From UHGV virus genome UHGV-1827629: a DNA stretch of 16,097 nucleotides; one strand, 5' to 3'. This document shows, one piece after another, positions 1,292-16,037 of the stretch (the first letter of the stretch is position 1; each line of letters opens with the position of its first letter). This DNA is from a virus. Under the pieces are notes generated by a model. It saw only the letters and a list, made by a program, of their open reading frames with translations. It ran no database searches and was not told the DNA's origin. The translations under genes were made by a program, and so were the position numbers.

Positions 1292-1893
1292 TCCCCCTTA
1301 CCGATGCCAGCGGCGCGGTCTATGCGTTCGATTTCAGCCAGAATTAAAGCCCCTGCTTTTACCAGGTTGCGACGGCGGGCATTTGGCTTCCACCATGAAG
1401 CATCCCAAGGCCACCCCCACGGCTTGCCACCATTGCGGTTAACAGTTCCTGTTTCGTTTATGTAACAAACCGCCGCCATTGCCAGTTCCCCGTTGCAGTG
1501 TTCGTCATCATGCTCTGGCATCCACCCCTCAACCGATTGTTGCCGCTGGCGCTCTGCTATCACATCCAGAAGTGCAGGATTGAACGCCAGCACCTCCAGT
1601 TCAGCAATCCGCTCCTCATACCGAGCGCCAACGGAAACGGCTTTATGGAAGGCTTCGCACCATTTGGACGATTGCGCCTGCATCTTCTCCAGCTCATCCA
1701 TCAGCGCCAGCACGGTAGTGGGGTTTGCTGCGGAGTTCAGCGCGTTCAAGGCAGTGATATCTGCATCAAGCTGAGTTCCTTCTGCCAGTGAGATATCGAA
1801 AATGTCATCAGGCGGCATAACACTAAGGCGCTCATGTGCGCCAACTGCTGCCGCTGCGATTTCACGCAGCGCCTGTTTGTCGATGTTGCTCAT
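1288..1893 (-). CDS. Conserved phage protein (201 aa) with C-terminal motif WPW...WWKP...RRNLVKAGALILAEIER (Ead/Ea22- or DUF550-like, uncertain)
   Basis: Internal ATG at 1891-1893 (M19 of the track ORF, MSNIDKQALRE...) overlaps the upstream stop as ATGA; the track's N-terminal extension lies inside the upstream gene. Family from memory only. Confidence 0.5.
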   Translation of the reverse strand: MSNIDKQALREIAAAAVGAHERLSVMPPDDIFDISLAEGTQLDADITALNALNSAANPTTVLALMDELEKMQAQSSKWCEAFHKAVSVGARYEERIAELEVLAFNPALLDVIAERQRQQSVEGWMPEHDDEHCNGELAMAAVCYINETGTVNRNGGKPWGWPWDASWWKPNARRRNLVKAGALILAEIERIDRAAGIGKGE

Positions 1894-2507
1894 TGGGCTG
1901 CCTCCTGGCGAAGTTGGGCGGCGCGAATTGCTTTCCACTGCGACCACATTCCGTTGTAATCAGTACCGGAAAGAGTTGAGTTGCGGTAGCCGTCATCAGT
2001 GCGCAAACCTTCTAGCGTGGTCTTAGAGATGAATATCTTCTCCATTACCCATTCTTCGAATAAATCACGCTCCGTCGCTTCATCTGGAATAGCACTTGCC
2101 CGTACTTCAGCCAGGAAAGCGTCGGTGGCTGGGGTTTCACAGTAAGCAACACGCAAATTAGGCATGCACTTATCCATCATCTGCTCCATTTCGCCAGGCT
2201 CAGCAGCAGCCCAATGAGCCAATGTTTCTTTCGCTGCCGCCTTCAGCCCCGCATTCTCCGCCGCCAGCTCCCTGCACTTGCTCTCGGCGTTAGCGAGCTG
2301 TACTGCCATGTCTGTGACTTCGGCTTCAAGTTTTTCAGCATATTCAATCAGGAGATCGATTCTTTCCGGCGTTACGGTTTTAACGTATTTGCAAATCGAT
2401 GACGCATAATTATCATCCTGGAGTGTGCCAGCCAGGCCATTACAAAATTTGCGGTTCCCTTTTGTCGCCTTGATATCGGCGATGATTTTTTTAACATCTG
2501 GTTTCAT
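1890..2507 (-). CDS. Coiled-coil phage protein (205 aa), possibly Ead/Ea22-like
   Basis: Internal ATG at 2505-2507 (MKPDVKK...) overlaps the ren stop as ATGA; the upstream part of the track ORF is Arg/Gly/Pro-rich and lies inside ren. Confidence 0.5.
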   Translation of the reverse strand: MKPDVKKIIADIKATKGNRKFCNGLAGTLQDDNYASSICKYVKTVTPERIDLLIEYAEKLEAEVTDMAVQLANAESKCRELAAENAGLKAAAKETLAHWAAAEPGEMEQMMDKCMPNLRVAYCETPATDAFLAEVRASAIPDEATERDLFEEWVMEKIFISKTTLEGLRTDDGYRNSTLSGTDYNGMWSQWKAIRAAQLRQEAAQ

Positions 2508-2803
2508 GCTGACACCCTCCCGTAAAACGCCAGTACACGCTTCATTGCCACGCTGTTGCGGCATTCCTGAAATATTCCGTTGGTGCAGCTGCGCGCTGTA
2601 CCAGCTTGCTCTTCCGGCGTCGCCAGGCGATAAGTCACCGTTCGCCAGACCTTGCTCACGCGGACAATCTTGCGGGACCGTTCCAGATCGATAGCATTCT
2701 TCGTGATGCAGTTGATGGTCATGCCGCACTCTGTGGCCACATCCTTCGCGGTGAAGGTCCGGTGCGTTTCGAGATAACGCAGAATTGCCTGTTTGCCTTT
2801 CAT
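2504..2803 (-). CDS. ren: Ren-like protein (99 aa)
   Basis: MKGKQAILRYLETHRTF...KVWRTVTYRLATPEE...FQECRNSVAMKRVLAFYG matches my memory of lambda Ren (MTGKEAIIHYLGTH...KVWRTVYYRFATREE...FKECRQSAAMKRVLAVYG); located directly after P as in lambda; ATG 2801-2803 overlaps P stop. Confidence 0.7.
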   Translation of the reverse strand: MKGKQAILRYLETHRTFTAKDVATECGMTINCITKNAIDLERSRKIVRVSKVWRTVTYRLATPEEQAGTARSCTNGIFQECRNSVAMKRVLAFYGRVSA

Positions 2804-3594
2804 TGGATAAGCCCTCTCTCTTTCCCTCGCTGATACTCTTCCCAAAGCCATTGGGCCGGGGTTAGAGCTCCGAGAGTCGCTGCGTTTGGCATGCACCCGA
2901 AGCTTTTTCCTTCCGGGTGATAACCGGCCTGACGGCTCACGTGATTTGTCGGGATCACTTCATCAGAATTCTCGAGCGCCAGGACGGGGGATGGTATTTT
3001 TTCCCCACCAGCAACTTTCAGCGCCCATTCCTCAAGTTTTTTTGACGCGTATTTTTCAGTTTCAGCCTCGCTCAGCTGGCGCTGGTACATCGCTCTGCGC
3101 GTATCGGTCACAATCCAGTACATGACGTCATGAGACCACGGGAAAGCTTCTGCTCCGCCGGTATGCAGCCCTTTTTCGCGGCTATACCGATGGAACTCAT
3201 TCATCACATCAGCCAGGCCAATGCCAAGTACCGTGCCGCTATCCTTGCACCATTTGATGAATTGCCCCGGAGAAGGCCAGAAGGGTGATTCACTGGCGCG
3301 GGCATGCCGTACACCTGCGGAAAGTTGTTCGCGGGTGCGGATCCCATTCTCTGAAAACGCTGCGATCCACTGACGCTTTGCCGTTTTCTCGTCTGCGTCA
3401 GTTTTCAGGTTTGTCTGCGTAGACGCAGGGAAAATCTGCTTCAGCTGCCGAAAGAGAGAATCAACGAGGCTTTCCGCTTCGGGATTTATTACCTTCTGCT
3501 GGTCGGCGTTTCCGTTAGCCATTCTGGATAGCAGTGCCCCGTCACGCCCGTTAACTGCCTGCACAAGTTGGTTATTCACAGGAAGTCCTCCCAT
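2800..3594 (-). CDS. P: Replication protein P-like (DnaB helicase loader)
   Basis: Central block FPAS...RQWIAAFSENGIRTREQLSAGVRHARASESPFWPSPGQFIKWC resembles lambda P (FPAS...RQWVLAFRENGITTMEQVNAGMRVARRQNRPFLPSPGQFVAWC, from memory). Start uncertain: ATG at 3594 overlaps O by 19 nt; alternative ATG at 3522. Confidence 0.75.
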   Translation of the reverse strand: MGGLPVNNQLVQAVNGRDGALLSRMANGNADQQKVINPEAESLVDSLFRQLKQIFPASTQTNLKTDADEKTAKRQWIAAFSENGIRTREQLSAGVRHARASESPFWPSPGQFIKWCKDSGTVLGIGLADVMNEFHRYSREKGLHTGGAEAFPWSHDVMYWIVTDTRRAMYQRQLSEAETEKYASKKLEEWALKVAGGEKIPSPVLALENSDEVIPTNHVSRQAGYHPEGKSFGCMPNAATLGALTPAQWLWEEYQRGKERGLIQ

Positions 3595-4265
3595 CCCTCG
3601 CGGCTGTTCCAGTGAGGCGTTTCCTGCTCAGCACGTCCACGTTTAGCCAGCGGGTTAACCCTGGCGTTTCGAATCCAGACCCTGAAAGCCGAATTCCAGT
3701 CGATCAGCAGCGTGCCGCGGGAAAGGTGATAGTCCCGGAAGTTCAGCAGCTCAGTTTCAATGCTCACCCCCTTCTCGGCAGCCATGGCAATGTGATCTGC
3801 TGATGGCTTAAACAGGGGCGGGAATGGAATCTCCCCGTTTGGTGAAATCCCTATCCGACGTTTTGCGGCTTCGCTCATAAAACCTTCGCGCCCAGAGAGA
3901 GAGTTAGGTTCATTGACTGGTTCAAAAGAGTGACTGATTCTGGGTGCAGCTCCTGCACTACCCCCTAGTGAATCTGTTGCACTACCTAGTGAATCTCCTG
4001 CACTACCCCCTAGTGAATCTGTTGCACTAGGTAAGGTCAGGATGTAGATGTTTGTAGAGTTCCCTTTTGGCCCCTTCCTGAATACTTTTTTCAGTAATCC
4101 AGATTGGCAGAGATCATCAATGTGACTCATGACTGACCGCTTGCTAATTTCGCATTGGTCAGCAATGTATTGATAGCTTGGCCAGCATTCCCCTTGATCG
4201 CTTGCGTTATCTGCCAACTTCAGGAGTACGAGCTTACGCAATGGGTTACCAACCTTAATTTGCAT
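3576..4265 (-). CDS. O: Replication initiator O-like protein (replisome-organizer HTH N-terminus; ori iterons inside the gene)
   Basis: N-terminus [45 protein letters not shown] looks like a replisome-organizer HTH; gene lies between cII and P; contains direct repeats translated as [26 protein letters not shown]. Start ambiguous: ATG 4265 (SD-like GGTGA), 4277 or 4286; the track's 4376 is a TTG extension overlapping the zinc-finger gene. Confidence 0.7.
3952..4030. repeat. Candidate replication-origin iterons: alternating 24-bp (CCTGCACTACCCCCTAGTGAATCT) and 21-bp (GTTGCACTACCTAGTGAATCT) direct repeats, each with a CACTA...TAGTG dyad
   Basis: Read directly: units at 3952-3975, 3976-3996, 3997-4020 and partial 4021-4030, all inside the O reading frame, as lambda ori iterons are. 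Confidence 0.65.
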
Positions 4266-4464
4266 GGCTTTCACCATTAGCATCATGCTCACGATGCAGC
4301 CTCCTGTTATTACTGAATACAAGGTTGACACACTCAAATACGCACTCGTCGCAGATACAAACTCCATCACCGGCAATTATCATGGCGACTTCGTTGTTAT
4401 TTTTTCCGCAAAAAGAGCATTTGTGTGTCGGGTGTAAATTTGCTTTTTTCACATCAATTGGCAT
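4255..4464 (-). CDS. Small C4 zinc-finger protein (69 aa) resembling the ClpX N-terminal zinc-binding domain
   Basis: [32 protein letters not shown] parallels the ClpX ZBD as I recall it ([30 protein letters not shown]); strong SD AGGAG 5-6 nt before ATG at 4462-4464. Confidence 0.6.
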
Positions 4465-4546
4465 AATTGCTCCTGTGAATTGATCCAGTTAATTCCACCT
4501 GAAAGCCGTTGGTGTTCCAGCACCGCGGCTTTTCCCCTTTCTACGT

Positions 4547-4768
4547 TCATGCTTCAAAATCTCCATTCACCCCATCCCGGTTTGAAATCAGGATTGCCAG
4601 CAAAAGCGACATGTTCGGAAGCAGGTTTTCCCGCCAGCGACTCACCGTTGATTTGTTAACGCCAGCCACTTCTGCGATTTTTGTCGTACCCAGTTCTGCT
4701 ATCTGGCTGTGTAACCAGCTCTCTATCCTCCGGGCCTCCAGTTTGTTGCGTGTTGTTAAGGTGTCCAT
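4547..4768 (-). CDS. cII: CII-like transcriptional activator (73 aa)
   Basis: LEARRIESWLHSQIAELGTTKIAEVAGVNKSTVSRWRENLLPNMSLLLAIL resembles lambda CII (RIESALLNKIAMLGTEKTAEAVGVDKSQISRWKRDWIPKFSMLLAVL, from memory); GAGGAAG SD upstream; position immediately after cro. Confidence 0.7.
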   Translation of the reverse strand: MDTLTTRNKLEARRIESWLHSQIAELGTTKIAEVAGVNKSTVSRWRENLLPNMSLLLAILISNRDGVNGDFEA

Positions 4769-4808: not shown

Positions 4809-5036
4809 TCAGGCAGCATGGTTCTCTGGGTGTGGAAACAGGTCGGGAAGATCAGGTCGAATTTCGTGTGCCTTAATCTCGCCACCAGTAGCGTTTACGA
4901 TGGCTGTTACTTTTTCCGGAGATACGGAACCACCGTTAAGCCACTTGTGAACCGCTGGCTGGCTAACGCCGCAAATATCTGCGAGTCGCTTCTGGCTGCC
5001 AACGATTTCTAAAGCTCGTTGAATAACTTTGTTCAT
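4809..5036 (-). CDS. cro: Cro-like HTH repressor (75 aa)
   Basis: Short HTH protein (LADICGVSQPAVHKWLNG) transcribed divergently from cI across the operator region. Confidence 0.65.
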   Translation of the reverse strand: MNKVIQRALEIVGSQKRLADICGVSQPAVHKWLNGGSVSPEKVTAIVNATGGEIKAHEIRPDLPDLFPHPENHAA

Positions 5037-5146: not shown

Positions 5147-5851
5147 ATGAAAACATTCGCAGATCGACTCAACGCGGCTATGAGAGCCGCAGGCATATCC
5201 CAAGGGCAGCTGGCTGAGAAAGTCGGCATATCTCAACCTGCAATTCAGAAAATGACATCAGGCAAAACCACAGGCAGCCGTAAGATGGTTGAGCTTGCTC
5301 ATGCATTGAACGTGCGTCCGGAATGGCTCAGTTCGGGCATAGGCTCAATGCAGGACGAAGGACGCAAGGACTCCGCTATCCCACCAGAATCGGAATGGGG
5401 TAAAGTTGACGCTTGGGATAGCAAAACAGATCTGCCAGATGACGAGGTCGAAGTGCCATATCTGAAAGACATAGAACTTGCGTGTGGTGATGGTTCCTGC
5501 TTGGAAGATGACTATAACGGATTCAAACTTCGTTTTGCGAAGTCTACCCTTCGTAAGGTGGGAGCCCAGAAAGATAGCGTGCTGTGCTTCCCGGCATCAG
5601 GAAATAGCATGGAGCCCATGATCCCGGAAGGGACGACGGTCGCCATCAACACGAACGACAAAAAGATCGTTGATGGCAAGGTTTATGCAATAAGCCAGGA
5701 CGGATGGAAAAGGCTAAAATCCATTTATCGTGTGAGTCCTACCCGCATCGTGATTCGCAGCTTCAACAGTGAAGAGTATCCTGATGAAGAAGCGGATATC
5801 GAGAGCGTAGAGATTATTGGTCGCATGTTCTGGACATCTACTATCTGGTAA
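5147..5851 (+). CDS. cI: CI-like phage repressor (N-terminal HTH, C-terminal S24 LexA-like peptidase domain)
   Basis: HTH motif QGQLAEKVGISQPAIQKM; C-terminal GNSMEPMIPEGTTVAINT...WKRLK is the S24 Ser/Lys signature; divergent from cro across OR; no SD and ATG close to the putative -10. Confidence 0.85.
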   Translation: MKTFADRLNAAMRAAGISQGQLAEKVGISQPAIQKMTSGKTTGSRKMVELAHALNVRPEWLSSGIGSMQDEGRKDSAIPPESEWGKVDAWDSKTDLPDDEVEVPYLKDIELACGDGSCLEDDYNGFKLRFAKSTLRKVGAQKDSVLCFPASGNSMEPMIPEGTTVAINTNDKKIVDGKVYAISQDGWKRLKSIYRVSPTRIVIRSFNSEEYPDEEADIESVEIIGRMFWTSTIW

Positions 5852-5865
5852 TCAAGAGGGAAGGG

Positions 5866-6555
5866 ATGAAATTAGAACTAATAGCATTATCTTTACTGGC
5901 TTTAACTACGAACGCAATCGGCTCTAGCACCCTGAGCTGCGATTACGCTAAGTCGGACATCAGTAATGGAGCTAATGCTCCAATGATTCCTAGCGGAAAA
6001 GGCACTGTCGAATTTGATGGAAAATCCTTTAAAGCCACACGTCCAAATGGTGGTGTGATCATTTCACCAATAATCAGTGAACAAAAAAATGGAATGCTTT
6101 TTCTTGACGACAAGACAAAAGTGTTCGCGGCAAGCCTTTCTAAAACTGATTTCGCTATCTCTGACCGAATTGCTCGAATTACTGAGCAATGGGCCAACTG
6201 CATTGATGTTAGTCCATCGCCGAACAATTCAGATAACGACAAACCGGCAACTGCCTGGAAATATAGGTCTCTCACGAAGCAGGAGATAAATGCTGTTGAG
6301 GCAGCAGTGAAAGACCAATTGAAGGATCCAGAAAGTGCCAGATTCAAGCACTCTAAGTTTGTGAGCAACGGGAAAGGCGCTTACTGCGGCCTGGTTAATT
6401 CCAAAAACTCATATGGCGGCTATGCTGGAAACACTCCTTTCATGGTCATGCTTATCAACAATGGCAAACCTCACGCTGGCTTTATTGGTATGGGCGGAGA
6501 TGATGCCGAGACCCTGTCAACGCTATCCGTCTGCAAAGACAGTGGTTATTTCTAA
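5866..6555 (+). CDS. Secreted (signal-peptide) protein of unknown function, 229 aa, 4 Cys; moron in the rexAB-equivalent slot
   Basis: N-terminus MKLELIALSLLALTTNAIG-SS is a typical Sec signal peptide (AxG cleavage site, not a canonical lipobox); SD GAGGGAAGGG before ATG; visibly more AT-rich than flanks with rare Leu/Ile codons; followed by an intrinsic terminator. Confidence 0.65.
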   Translation: MKLELIALSLLALTTNAIGSSTLSCDYAKSDISNGANAPMIPSGKGTVEFDGKSFKATRPNGGVIISPIISEQKNGMLFLDDKTKVFAASLSKTDFAISDRIARITEQWANCIDVSPSPNNSDNDKPATAWKYRSLTKQEINAVEAAVKDQLKDPESARFKHSKFVSNGKGAYCGLVNSKNSYGGYAGNTPFMVMLINNGKPHAGFIGMGGDDAETLSTLSVCKDSGYF

Positions 6556-8656: not shown

Positions 8657-9628
8657 ATGAGCGAAGTAACGGACTTAACTGTCATCGAAATCAAGCCGGA
8701 ACAGGCCCCAGTGCTTTACGTAGCGGGCGGCCTTGACGCGTACCTTGAGCAAATCCGCCAGGCTGTAAACGAAGTGCCGGACCTGTCCACGAAGAAAGGC
8801 CGTGACCGTGTTGCCTCTCTGGCAGCGCAGGTGTCCCGCAGCAAGACGGCAATCGAAAAGCCGGGCCGTGAGTACCTGAAGCGCCTGAAAGAGGCTGTGC
8901 GTCCGGCTGAGGCCGAAATTAAGCGATTCGTTGATGCCTGCGACGAGCTGCGCGATGCGACCCGCCGCCCACTCACCGAATGGGAAGCCGAGCAGGAACG
9001 CATTAAGGCTGAAGAAGCCATGAACGCGATGCACGCCGAAGCGCTGGAGATGAACATCAGGTTCGATCAGGAGCTGGCTGCCAAGTTCGAAGCGGACCAC
9101 GAAATGGCTCTACTGATGAACAAGGATTTTGACCGTGACCGCGAAGAGCAGCGCCGTCTGGCGGAACAGGCTCAGCGTGAACGTGATGAGCGGCTGAAAC
9201 AGGAAGCGGCAGAACAAGCCCGCCGCGATGCCGAAGCGAAGCACAAAGCGGAGATTGAAGCCGCAGCGCGCCGTGAAGCTGAAGAGAAAGCACGTGCAGA
9301 GCTGGCTGAACGCCAGCGCGTCGAAGCGGAACAGCGTACAGCTCGCGAGAAGCAGGAAGCAGAAGCCCGGGCAGAACGCGAAAAAGCCGCGGCGGTTGAA
9401 GCCGAGCGCCTGAAGGCCAAACAGGCCGAAGATGCCCGCCTGGCCGAAGAGAAGCGCCTCGCCGATGAGCAGGCAAAGCGTGAAGCTGACGTTAAGCACC
9501 GCAAGACGGTCGGCACCAACATCGTTAACGCGCTCACCAGCCACACCAGCTTAACCCGCGAACAGGCTATCGAAGTGCTTACCGCTCTGAAAGATGACCT
9601 CATCCCCTGCGCGAAAATTCATTACTGA
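8657..9628 (+). CDS. Large charged coiled-coil protein (323 aa) with an extended Glu/Arg/Lys/Ala-rich central helix; function unknown
   Basis: SD CAGGAG before ATG at 8657; ~150-residue central stretch of AEEKARAELAERQRVEAEQRTAREKQEAEARAEREK type; conserved-looking globular ends. Confidence 0.7.
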   Translation: MSEVTDLTVIEIKPEQAPVLYVAGGLDAYLEQIRQAVNEVPDLSTKKGRDRVASLAAQVSRSKTAIEKPGREYLKRLKEAVRPAEAEIKRFVDACDELRDATRRPLTEWEAEQERIKAEEAMNAMHAEALEMNIRFDQELAAKFEADHEMALLMNKDFDRDREEQRRLAEQAQRERDERLKQEAAEQARRDAEAKHKAEIEAAARREAEEKARAELAERQRVEAEQRTAREKQEAEARAEREKAAAVEAERLKAKQAEDARLAEEKRLADEQAKREADVKHRKTVGTNIVNALTSHTSLTREQAIEVLTALKDDLIPCAKIHY

Positions 9629-9761: not shown

Positions 9762-9820
9762 AAGAAGAGTGGGATCGCCTTCATCCAACCTGCCCGTTTT
9801 AATTTTTGAGGGGATTAACG

Positions 9821-10666
9821 ATGGCAAACGAATTAACAATCACAGCGAAGTCGCTTCAGGAGATAGGCGTCGACGTCTCCACATGGAGTGCACTGAAGAA
9901 CAGCATCTACCCTGGCGCCAAAGACGAATCGGTAATGATGGCGCTTGACTACTGCCGCGCCCGCCAGCTGGATCCGTTGCTCAAACCTGTCCACCTCGTT
10001 CCGATGTACGTTAAAGACTCGAAAACAGGTAAAGGTGACTGGCGCGACGTGGTCATGCCGGGCATCGGGCTTTACCGCATTCAGGCAGACCGCTCTGGCG
10101 ATTATGCCGGGGCACGGGAGCCTGAGTTCGGGCCCGATGTAACTCAGACGCTTACTGGTGTCGAGGTGACCTTCCCTCAGTGGTGCAAATACACCGTTTT
10201 CAAGCGCATGCCCAGCGGCGAGATCGTCGAGTTCAGCGCCAAAGAATACTGGATTGAAAACTATGCCACCGGCGGCAGCGAAACAACGGCGCCGAATGCG
10301 ATGTGGAAAAAGCGCCCATACGGACAGCTGGCGAAATGCGCGGAAGCCCAGGCGTTGCGTAAGGCATGGCCTGAGATTGGACAGCAGCCTACCGCCGAAG
10401 AAATGGAAGGAAAATCACTGGATGTTGATATCCGTGACGTCACGCCGCGCAGCACAACAGAATCACTTCCACCAGCAGCAAGCGAAGAAACGCTTCAGGC
10501 GATAACCGATCTCTTAACATCGCTGAATAAAGACTGGGAGCAAGACTTCCTCCCAGTTTGCAGCGACATCTTCAAACGGCCAATTCTTGAGGCGTCAGAC
10601 CTCACTGAAGAAGAGGCACAGAAAGGGTTCAACTTCCTTCAGAAAAAAGCTAAGGCGGCAGCATGA
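9821..10666 (+). CDS. bet: Bet/Red-beta family single-strand annealing protein
   Basis: C-terminus [55 protein letters not shown] matches lambda Bet's C-terminus from memory; N-terminus divergent but same pattern; stop overlaps exo start (ATGA); SD GAGGGG before ATG 9821. Confidence 0.8.
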
Positions 10667-11343
10667 CACCAGAAATTATCTTTGCCCGCACCGGTGTTGA
10701 CGTAACCACTATCCAACAGGGCGATGAGGCGTGGCACCGGCTGCGCCTCGGCGTCATTACTGCCTCAGAAGTACACAACGTCATATCCAAGCCGAGATCG
10801 GGTAAGAAGTGGACAGATATGAAAATGTCCTACTTCCACACGCTGCTCGCGGAGGTATGCACAGGCGTGGCGCCAGAGGTTAACGCCAAGGCGCTGGCCT
10901 GGGGCAAGCAGTACGAGGAAGACGCCCGCACCCTCTTCGAGTTCACAACTGACGTGAAAGTCACGGAGTCTCCGATCCTGTTCCGTGACGAGAGCATGCG
11001 CACCGCGTGCTCCCCTGACGGCCTATGCAGTAACGGGTTCGGCCTTGAGCTTAAGTGCCCTTTCACCTCTCGCGATTTCATGAAGTTCCGCCTTGGCGGT
11101 TTCGAAGCCATCAAGTCTGCGTACATGGCCCAGGTGCAGTACAGCATGTGGGTTACCGGAAAAGACGCCTGGTTCTTTGCCAACTACGACCCGCGCATGA
11201 AACGCGAAGGTATTCACCACGTCGTCGTTGAGCGGGATCCACAGTACATGACCGATTTCAACGAAATGGTGCCGGATTTCATTGAGAAGATGGACGAAGC
11301 GCTGGCGGAGATCGGCTTCACGTTCGGAGAGCAGTGGAAATGA
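10663..11343 (+). CDS. exo: Lambda-type 5'-3' exonuclease (Red-alpha / YqaJ family)
   Basis: Near full-length similarity to lambda Exo as I recall it (MTP.II..RTG.DV...[63 protein letters not shown]...ALAEIGF.FGEQW). Confidence 0.95.
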
Positions 11344-14649: not shown

Positions 14650-14997
14650 ATGGAAGAAATAATTTTCACCCGCGACGAGGCGGCGAACTTCCTGCGCGTC
14701 AGTGAAGGGACTGTGGCCGAATGGATAAAGTCTGGAAGACTCGCCGCTACCCGCAAAAATCCCGCTAAAAAGAAAAGTCCATATCTCATCTGCAAGACAG
14801 ATTGCATTGCAGCGTTGAAGAACACGATCCACAATCAGCCGGTGAATGCGGTTGATGTGCAGGAGGGTAAAGCATGTCAATCAAACAACGTGCCGGTACG
14901 TGGCACTGCGACTTCGTTACGCCTGGTGGCGTCAGAATTAGACGGTCTCTTGGCACAACGGACAAAAGGCAAGCGCAGGAACTCCATGATCAGCTAA
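14650..14997 (+). CDS. xis: Excisionase (AlpA/Xis-type HTH), 116 aa
   Basis: [36 protein letters not shown] is an excisionase-type HTH; GGAG SD before ATG 14650; immediately upstream of and overlapping int by 124 nt in another frame. The track's 14494 start is probably an extension. Confidence 0.6.
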
Positions 14998-16037
14998 AAG
15001 CTGAAGCGTGGCGTGTAGACAAGATGGGGGAATATAAGGCGCACACTTTTGATGAAGCATGTGTGCGCTGGCTGAACGAGAAGCAGCATAAGAAGAGCCT
15101 GGACGATGATAAAAGCCGGATCGGATTCTGGCTTATGCATTTCCGGGGAATGGACCTGTCCGAGATTACAGAGGATAAAATTCTCTCGGCCGCCAGTGGA
15201 ATGGTAAACAGGAAGCACAGACTTAATTGGGAGTCACGGAGGGATAGTTGCCTCAGGATGGGTAAGCCTGTTCCCGAGTACAAGGAAAAGCCAGCAGCAC
15301 AGGCAACCAGAACAACACACCTTGCTTTCATTCGGGCTTTGCTCAGATGTGCGGCTAACGAATGGCGATGGATAGCCAAAGCGCCGAATATCAAATGCCC
15401 TGTTCCAAAGAACAAACGTATTCGATGGCTGACAAAAGATGAGGCGCAGTCATTAATACGTGAATTGCCTGACCACTTTAAGCCGGTGGTTGTTTTTGCT
15501 CTGGCAACGGGATTGAGGCGATCCAACATAACGGATCTGGAATGGTCTCAGATAGACATGCAGAGGAAGGTTGCGTGGATACACCCAGAGGATGCAAAAG
15601 CAGGCAGGGCGATTGGGGTCGCCCTTAATGATTCTGCATGCAGGGTATTACGCGATCAGGTAGGAAAGCACAATCGGTGGGTGTTCGTTCACACTGAATC
15701 ATCTGTTCGTCCGGATGGAACCAGGACTAAAGAGGTCAGGAAGATGAGGAGCGATGCTAACACAGCGTGGAGGGCTGCGTTAAGAAGAGCCGGAATTGAA
15801 AACTTCCGTTTCCATGATTTGCGGCACACCTGGGCAAGCTGGCTTGTGCAGTCCGGCGTTCCGTTATCAGCGCTTCAGGAAATGGGAGGTTGGGAGAGCA
15901 TTGAAATGGTTCAGCGCTATGCTCACTTAGCACCGAATCACCTGACGCAACATGCGATGCAAATTGACTCATTTCTGGCAGGAAATGGCACAAATATGGC
16001 ACAAGGCACGTTTGCAGACTTGGTGAATATCGCGTGA
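14874..16037 (+). CDS. int: Tyrosine site-specific integrase (P22/P4-like)
   Basis: N-terminal arm-binding motif [31 protein letters not shown]; C-terminal catalytic region [39 protein letters not shown] with the R..H.R.Y residues; strong SD AGGAGGG; ends 16 bp before the tRNA 3' end. Confidence 0.95.

Follow-up and report, generated by a model that had tools for sequence, protein, structure and literature searches.

The degradation of the phage lambda replication initiator O by ClpXP is a textbook case of regulated proteolysis. It requires the zinc-binding domain (ZBD) of ClpX, in which the site for lambda O overlaps with a hydrophobic region including F16 and I46, a region to which SspB, RssB and trigger factor bind as well (PMC7804408). 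A free protein with the fold of the ClpX N-terminal domain has been described from Bacillus subtilis, where CsfB/Gin (PDB 5N7Y), a stand-alone dimeric treble-clef zinc finger, acts as a stoichiometric anti-sigma inhibitor; it is about 20% identical to ClpX and an evolutionary relation between the two is doubtful (PMC5890618). The present report concerns a 16,097-nucleotide (nt) stretch of viral DNA (UHGV-1827629), referred to as the window, which represents a lambdoid prophage's early region and carries, immediately before its replication initiator gene, a small gene for a stand-alone ZBD protein. This protein is a clear sequence homologue of the ClpX ZBD, the match being far beyond chance, and related genes hold the same place before replication initiators of several families. 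The gene, which has an ATG start, and its domain core are located as follows.

4255-4464, minus strand: ZBD gene, encoding a 69-amino-acid (aa) stand-alone protein of the ClpX ZBD type (open reading frame (ORF), Pfam, PDB and fold matches)
4315-4431, minus strand: domain core, residues 12-50 (PTHK-CSFC...CxxC-helix), with putative zinc ligands C16, C19, C38 and C41 (model confidence, substitution rates and conservation)

The first-pass annotation had recognised the C4 pattern and neighbouring residues of the ClpX ZBD in the 69-aa product, and profile searches bear this out. The zf-C4_ClpX family (PF06689) is the sole Pfam match and reaches 50.2 bits (E = 2.3e-13; gathering cut-off 27 bits), covering residues 15-49 of the protein and positions 2-37 of the 39 in the profile; all PHROG and PDB matches are likewise of the ClpX ZBD type. 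By sequence, the best matches in the PDB are 1ovx and 2ds5 (E ~1e-8), two entries for the ZBD of E. coli ClpX in which the motifs CSFCGK and ICDECV are identical to those of the phage protein, and the identity to the E. coli domain is ~50% over 37 residues. The four cysteines C16, C19, C38 and C41 align with C14, C17, C36 and C39 of ClpX and show the same CxxC-18-CxxC spacing. An AlphaFold2 single-chain model, built with 17 homologues as input, contains the elements of a treble clef (zinc knuckle, beta-hairpin and C-terminal helix), with strands predicted at residues 29-32 and 35-38, a helix from residue 39, a core predicted local distance difference test score (pLDDT) of 82-89 and a disordered C-terminal tail. 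The predicted structure superposes closely on the ClpX ZBD crystal structures 2ds5, 2ds6, 2ds7 and 2ds8, the root-mean-square deviation (RMSD) being 0.7-0.9 Å over 37-38 residues (target-normalised template modelling score 0.78-0.87, probability 1.00). The protein would bind zinc and would probably dimerise in the manner of the ClpX domain. The helix hydrophobics V42, C45, I/L48 and V49 are conserved among its relatives, and the helix, which is more hydrophobic than that of ClpX, is compatible with a dimer.

The protein is not a ClpX. The 69-aa product lacks the AAA+ module, with its Walker motifs, pore loops and IGF loop, that follows the ZBD in ClpX, since the next gene is the initiator, and the NCBIfam ClpX models TIGR00382 and NF003745 give it 35.7 and 38.8 bits, their cut-offs being 370.75 and 359, with matches confined to profile positions 5-53. 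Among 42 distinct coding sequences of the family described below, the ratio of non-synonymous to synonymous substitution rates (dN/dS) is 0.12 for residues 12-50 compared with 0.64-0.78 for residues 2-11; the domain is under purifying selection. Several other origins of the reading frame were considered and rejected. A chance or wrong-strand ORF is contradicted by the Shine-Dalgarno (SD) sequence, Pfam match and low dN/dS of the minus-strand frame, the antisense ORFs at 4264-4437 and 4325-4483 being unsupported. A truncated or pseudogenised clpX does not agree with the steady size of the family members (55-69 aa) or with the lack of any AAA+ remnant before the initiator, and a recent capture from a host clpX gene is unsupported at ~50% identity to the E. 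coli ZBD. The domain assignment itself is not new, since a 99.5%-identical gene in E. coli EC09 has been named 'ClpX C4-type zinc finger protein' by NCBI, and the PHROG database already holds five ZBD-only phage families, four of them of unknown function and one labelled 'protease'.

The genes and signals around the ZBD gene are listed below in the order of transcription of the minus strand.

4809-5036, minus strand: cro-like repressor, with which the rightward early operon begins (YdaS, HTH_3 and P22_Cro matches)
4547-4768, minus strand: cII-like activator, upstream neighbour of the ZBD gene (PF05269, phrog_3638)
4470-4474, minus strand: SD sequence of the ZBD gene, AGGAG, preceding the ATG by 5 nt
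4300-4305, minus strand: SD sequence AGGAGG of the initiator gene, within ZBD codons N53-R54-R55
3576-4292, minus strand: O-like replication initiator, HTH_36 and DnaD_N/DnaT-like (Pfam and PHROG)
3944-4033: iteron array inside the initiator gene, ~4 copies of CCTAGTGAATCTsyTGCACTA
2800-3594, minus strand: lambda-P-type helicase loader (PF06992, E = 3e-58; phrog_109)

The arrangement is that of a lambdoid replication module, which follows cII, has a po/oop-like element over the start of its first cistron, and continues with an initiator gene containing internal iterons and then the loader gene. The ZBD gene takes the first-cistron position. The first-pass annotation had located it between cII and O; the position stands, whereas the identity of the downstream gene has to be revised, as the initiator is of the HTH_36/DnaD_N type and not a lambda O (PF04492). 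The initiator probably starts at the GTG at 4292, so that the two genes would overlap by 38 nt, and a 99%-identical 238-aa protein (P0168) has been called from the equivalent start on 24 contigs. The SD sequence and start of the initiator thus lie within the ZBD gene, so that the C-terminal tail of the ZBD protein is largely an alternative frame of the initiator start. The location of this SD sequence inside the upstream coding sequence, together with the overlap, fits a coupled and near-equimolar synthesis of the two proteins. The iterons, which are presumed to be the origin, encode a repeated TDSLGGSAG peptide, and stretches 90% identical to the iteron region are found within 'replication protein O' genes of Stx2 phages. 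At the other end of the ZBD gene, the SD sequence, ATG and first codons can be aligned with the region in which translation of lambda O starts (lambda 38,6xx), the first codons being homologous at the DNA level to those of lambda O.

A scan of IMG/VR returned 66 loci, 62 of which form a single family defined by an invariant PTHKCSFC motif. In every one of the 62, the next gene on the same strand specifies a replication initiator or organiser of 200-355 aa, the start of which lies 14-17 nt after the ZBD stop codon or overlaps it. The downstream proteins fall into separate BLAST clusters representing at least five initiator families: the HTH_36/DnaD_N type of the window (phrog_8540; 6 loci), a DnaD-like group (phrog_1701; 34 loci), DUF1376 proteins (phrog_6451; 17 loci), the genuine lambda O family (PF04492/phrog_345; 4 loci) and phrog_2514 with PF04492 (1 locus). 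The gene upstream of the ZBD gene belongs to the cII family or is YdaT-like, and two annotated Klebsiella phages show the order cII(YdaT)-ZBD-initiator-DnaC. Sequences that are only 45-60% identical and come from five module types still share the zinc ligands and the core. Programmed frameshifting from the ZBD frame into the initiator frame is unsupported, since most family members have the 14-17 nt gap and not an overlap. One apparent ZBD-initiator fusion (P0016) was discarded; it comes from a 1.7-kb contig on which a frameshift, probably an indel or error, lets the frame run on into that of O.

The ZBD gene travels with the replication genes. A block of 97% identity shared with the E. coli EC09 prophage (2701-4542) comprises the oop-like element, the ZBD gene, O and P, and the immunity genes of the two elements differ; the mosaic boundary at 4542 falls just after cII in transcription order. 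Contigs with the same or an 89%-identical initiator carry the ZBD gene together with diverse cI and cro alleles, and an intact ZBD ORF was present in 13 of 13 examined loci with an O allele of the window type (at least 88% identity). Since the ZBD gene is shared along with oop, O and P while immunity varies, it is part of the replication module and not of the immunity module. A search of genome contigs for the pattern G[VA]CICDEC returned mostly full-length ClpX proteins of Clostridia and Atribacterota, along with a single prophage-type locus (Serratia, L072).

The PTHKCSFC family was compared with 77 full-length ClpX sequences and with E. coli ClpX. Features of ClpX that are kept in the family include the zinc knuckle, F16, E23/V24, L27-I28-A29-G30, V33, I35, C43, I46 and I47. 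Within the hydrophobic substrate and adaptor patch of ClpX (F16, A29, I46), the equivalent of F16 is F18, which is invariant in the family, that of A29 is A31, kept in 85% of members, and that of I46 is position 48, which is Ile in 82% of members and Leu in the window protein. By this alignment, the patch is retained in the family.

These features can be accommodated in a model in which the ZBD gene, as first cistron of the replication module, would be expressed from pR behind cro and cII, with its translation beginning where that of O begins in lambda and being coupled to that of the overlapping initiator gene. By means of its ClpX-like patch, the free domain would bind freshly synthesised initiator, or host adaptors, at the determinants that the tethered ZBDs of the ClpX hexamer would bind, and such binding would be non-productive because the protein has no AAA+ motor. 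It would then serve as a stoichiometric decoy, competitively inhibiting N-domain-dependent recognition by ClpXP, and a longer initiator lifetime would favour origin firing. The model is plausible, given the retention of the patch, the lambda O precedent and the invariant coupling to initiators that include homologues of lambda O. The link to the initiator that the first-pass annotation had put forward gains indirect support from the adjacency in the 62 loci, the place of the gene in the replication module and the retained patch. That the decoy, through these presumed binding partners and a presumed effect on proteolysis, spares the initiator from ClpXP is a tentative proposal with somewhat less than an even chance of being right.

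The tight adjacency and coupling to initiator genes would also be expected of an initiator accessory factor with no connection to ClpX, that is, a small dimeric module that binds the initiator, the loader or the origin complex and takes part in assembly, chaperoning or regulation of the O-some. Residues that are invariant in the family and absent from ClpX point the same way, particularly PTHK, F43, V46 and F50, as does the broad co-variation of ZBD subgroups with initiator family. A further locus (L068, 3327-4967) encodes a 546-aa protein in which two N-terminal ZBD-like fingers are joined to a P-loop region that is weakly similar to DnaC-like AAA+ proteins (phrog_50, E = 4.5e-6), a possible fusion of the ZBD with replication proteins, and the fold is used outside ClpX in many other architectures as well as in the anti-sigma factor CsfB (PMC5890618). 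Such a factor would, however, require one small conserved domain to recognise five non-homologous initiator families, no initiator-ZBD fusion occurs among the 120 best initiator homologues, and the retained patch residues fit a ClpX-related role more directly. An accessory function of this kind is therefore regarded as unlikely, while being the strongest competitor of the decoy model.

The close similarity to the ClpX ZBD, including the hydrophobic residues of the dimer helix and those of the patch, also agrees with a general modulator of host ClpX or its adaptors, for which the position before O would reflect early expression only. The protein might form heterodimers with nascent ClpX N-domains or soak up adaptors of the SspB/RssB type, and the benefits could be that toxin-antitoxin or abortive-infection triggers are blocked, other phage proteins are stabilised or the lysis-lysogeny decision is biased. 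Phage proteins directed at host AAA+ proteases have precedents, among them lambda cIII, which acts on FtsH, and T7 Gp4.5 and T4 PinA, which act on Lon. A precedent within the Clp family is SPO1 Gp53, which acts on ClpCP (PMC6873191). A general modulator leaves unexplained the fixed, coupled place before the initiator in 62 of 62 loci, where a scatter over early accessory genes, as with other phage ZBD proteins, might be expected. At ~50% identity to the enterobacterial ClpX ZBD, moreover, the protein does not track the host domain as heterodimerisation would seem to need, and there is no PADLOC association. This role is less likely again than that of an accessory factor.

The start of the ZBD gene is overlain by two elements on the opposite strand.

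4440-4467, plus strand: po-like antisense promoter (-35 TTGCTT at 4440-4445, 16-nt spacer, extended -10 TGgCATAAT at 4459-4467)
~4474-4541, plus strand: inferred antisense RNA of the oop type; of its two hairpins, the second resembles a terminator (AAAGCCG...CGGCUUU with a U/C-rich tail); the ends are approximate

The promoter aligns with lambda po, the promoter of the antisense oop RNA, and the ZBD start codon, read on the opposite strand, supplies the CAT of its -10 box. The pair of boxes (-35 TTTACC or TTGCTT; -10 CATACT or CATAAT) is seen in nearly all family members. A generic promoter and terminator scan flagged neither the po-like promoter nor the oop-like terminator. The RNA has a predicted minimum free energy of -24 kcal/mol (z = -4.8), which none of 200 shuffled sequences equalled; its 5' part aligns with lambda oop, and a search of Rfam gave no match. 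Unlike lambda oop, the RNA of the window ends at a terminator in the spacer between cII and the ZBD gene and barely reaches cII (region 4440-4545). The -35 box, which on the other strand reads as GTTTAC/TTGC, explains why K-A/V-N is conserved in the N-terminal peptide of the ZBD protein. An N-terminal ClpX degron resembling that of lambda O was considered for the ZBD protein and is speculative, as the fit to the published N-motif is not convincing and the conservation is accounted for by the po -35 box.

Relatives with a different N-terminal allele of the initiator have no ZBD domain. In its place they carry a 33-aa ORF, MPSKSKRVNKPEVAREHVTYGESNGGQSGKLTA, with the same SD/ATG start region and the same overlap with the initiator start. 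Examples are L002 (3305-3360, E. coli KCJ3K291) and L168 and L169 (1458-1559), a version beginning MPGKSVRVNN... is found in other loci, and the ORF is called as a gene by some pipelines. By itself it may act as a leader for translational coupling, and on this comparison the ZBD gene amounts, in effect, to such a leader ORF carrying a zinc domain inside. The relationship raises the question of whether the ZBD gene is mainly a cis-acting leader that carries po and delivers ribosomes to the initiator gene, with the zinc domain as a tolerated passenger (moron). Part of the conservation of the protein is indeed at the DNA level, since the po -35 box specifies K-A/V-N while the initiator SD sequence and first codons specify the C-terminal NRR and tail. 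The slot also accepts other inserts: in a related prophage (L170, 731-1504) it is filled by a GIY-YIG-like gene (T5orf172/MUG113) of the homing-endonuclease type, which indicates that the cII-initiator junction, a mosaic joint of a known kind, is an insertion hot spot. Degenerate ZBD variants occur as well. A passenger would be expected to decay, yet only one frameshifted copy (L065) is present among the 62 loci; selection acts strongly on the domain specifically (dN/dS 0.12), and the zinc ligands and core persist through highly divergent sequences in five module types. A mainly cis-acting leader with a passenger domain of little function is, accordingly, improbable.

Several of these observations, together with some others, weigh against the decoy model. 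The ZBD gene is rare, being present in one of 5426 complete E. coli genomes and in three or four records of the phage collection, and the alleles without it manage with the 33-aa leader ORF alone. The adjacency of ZBD and initiator genes could reflect a hot spot of recombination or insertion at which the two are physically linked, and linkage alone would hold the two together because they physically overlap. The initiator of the window (phrog_8540/1032) is itself outside the family of lambda O, which weakens the premise of the first-pass annotation. As regards the binding surface, L42 of ClpX corresponds to position 44, which is Leu in 72% of the family and Glu in the window protein. The family has invariant residues of its own relative to ClpX, namely P12-T13-H14-K15 before the first Cys, N23 (Q21 in ClpX), F43 (acidic in ClpX), V46 and F50, with Cys or Ser at the position of Y34 of E. 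coli ClpX, and these could reflect either a tuned specificity or a different partner. Of the 42 distinct intact sequences of the family, nearly all keep the zinc cysteines, and two variants have Trp or Tyr in place of the fourth. In 14 loci (L038, L048 and relatives) the hairpin is shortened by a seven-residue deletion (VLIAGPG), and this form is stably paired with DUF1376-type initiators; the hairpin-deletion and fourth-Cys variants, together with the one frameshifted copy, may mean that the requirements of the fold are looser than in ClpX. Besides the hairpin-deletion type, variant loci are L027, L028, L042 and L065, of which L027 is a chimera of two ZBD subgroups and so attests to recombination inside the ZBD gene. 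More generally, the ZBD fold is found in many proteins other than ClpX, so the domain alone implies no ClpX-related function, and other phage ZBD-only proteins, such as orf93 of phage D6, are not located beside replication genes. The full proposal, that temperate phages of enterobacteria have copied the recognition domain of host ClpX as a coupled first cistron to serve as a decoy against N-domain-dependent ClpXP recognition, is given a probability of about one third.

The remainder of the window has the gene content of a lambdoid early region.

5147-5851, plus strand: cI-type repressor with helix-turn-helix and S24 peptidase domains, divergent from the operon of the ZBD gene
9806-11343: RecT and YqaJ exonuclease
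14874-16037: integrase

Ead/Ea22 genes are also present on the minus strand (Pfam/PHROG annotation). Directly after cI is an ORF of 229 aa (5866-6555, plus strand) with a signal-peptide-like N-terminus, MKLELIALSLLALTTNAIGSSTLSC; it lies where an accessory gene expressed in the lysogen would be placed, compare lambda rexAB. This ORF has no Pfam or PADLOC match, and the same is true of two others in the early regions, at 8657-9628 (plus strand, 323 aa) and 1890-2729 (minus strand, 279 aa). No defence system in the window was matched by PADLOC.

Looking more widely, an exhaustive profile search (E <= 0.001) matched 15,149 cluster representatives, a count that includes full-length ClpX. Most of the top matches are proteins with 2-7 tandem ZBDs (among P0018-P0166), apparently unstudied, and some are fused to tetratricopeptide repeat arrays, ornithine/aspartate carbamoyltransferase or glyoxalase. 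A literature search for a phage-encoded free ZBD, a phage anti-ClpX protein or a functional study returned incidental mentions in a phage context only. As far as could be found, the new elements are the fixed first-cistron position of the ZBD gene in lambdoid replication modules across five initiator families, and its shared start region and po promoter together with its relationship to the leader ORF. If the decoy model is true, the targeting of phage initiators by ClpXP would be an interface between host and phage that is general and not peculiar to lambda, since the decoy precedes five unrelated families. Among natural inhibitors of bacterial AAA+ proteases, the protein would be the first 'receptor-domain mimic', and it would provide a genetically encoded, N-domain-specific ClpXP inhibitor that should leave ssrA-type degradation untouched. 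A free ZBD coupled to initiator synthesis would make the questions of why initiators are unstable, and whether phages counter this, directly testable. Should the protein instead assist the initiator with no relation to ClpX, lambdoid replication modules would nonetheless have a new conserved component. The free ZBD would also be an entry point to the non-ClpX proteins with a ClpX-type ZBD, a very large group that is functionally unexplored.

Among known systems, a close one is the ClpX ZBD itself, which the window protein resembles in the CSFCGK...ICxECV motif, cysteine spacing, ~50% identity, predicted fold and patch (F16/A29/I46), and from which it differs in being a free protein of 69 aa without linker or AAA+ module that is encoded by a phage within a replication module. 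The ZBD-only phage families (phrog_6797, 5259, 12435, 20296 and 3680) and WP_072052368.1 share the domain, a similar size and a phage or prophage origin; the PTHKCSFC family is set apart from those PHROG families by its fixed position before an initiator. The phage D6 protein orf93 (L171, 2827-3147) is 106 aa long, has a C-terminal ZBD, is carried by a P1-like plasmid prophage among nin-like small genes and is mis-annotated in one record as a 'carboxylate--amine ligase'.

Similarities to characterised protease modulators are of role and not of descent: the Pfam, PHROG and PDB matches of the protein show no homology to lambda cIII, T4 PinA, T7 Gp4.5 or SPO1 Gp53. Lambda cIII is an inhibitor and competing substrate of FtsH that stabilises cII, and acts on the protease as an amphipathic helix. 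Like cIII, the window protein is a small early lambdoid protein proposed to guard a short-lived phage regulator against a host AAA+ protease; it has no sequence or fold relation to cIII and would mimic the recognition domain of the protease itself. Gp53 of SPO1 is an adaptor-like modulator that binds the ClpC unfoldase of B. subtilis ClpCP (PMC6873191), and both are small phage proteins that act, or in the present case would act, through substrate selection by the unfoldase of a Clp protease; the difference is that the window protein resembles the unfoldase N-domain itself, and host, protease and fold all differ. With CsfB, finally, it would share the architecture of a free, dimeric treble clef used as an inhibitor, and it is distinguished from CsfB by its clear homology to ClpX (E = 2e-13).

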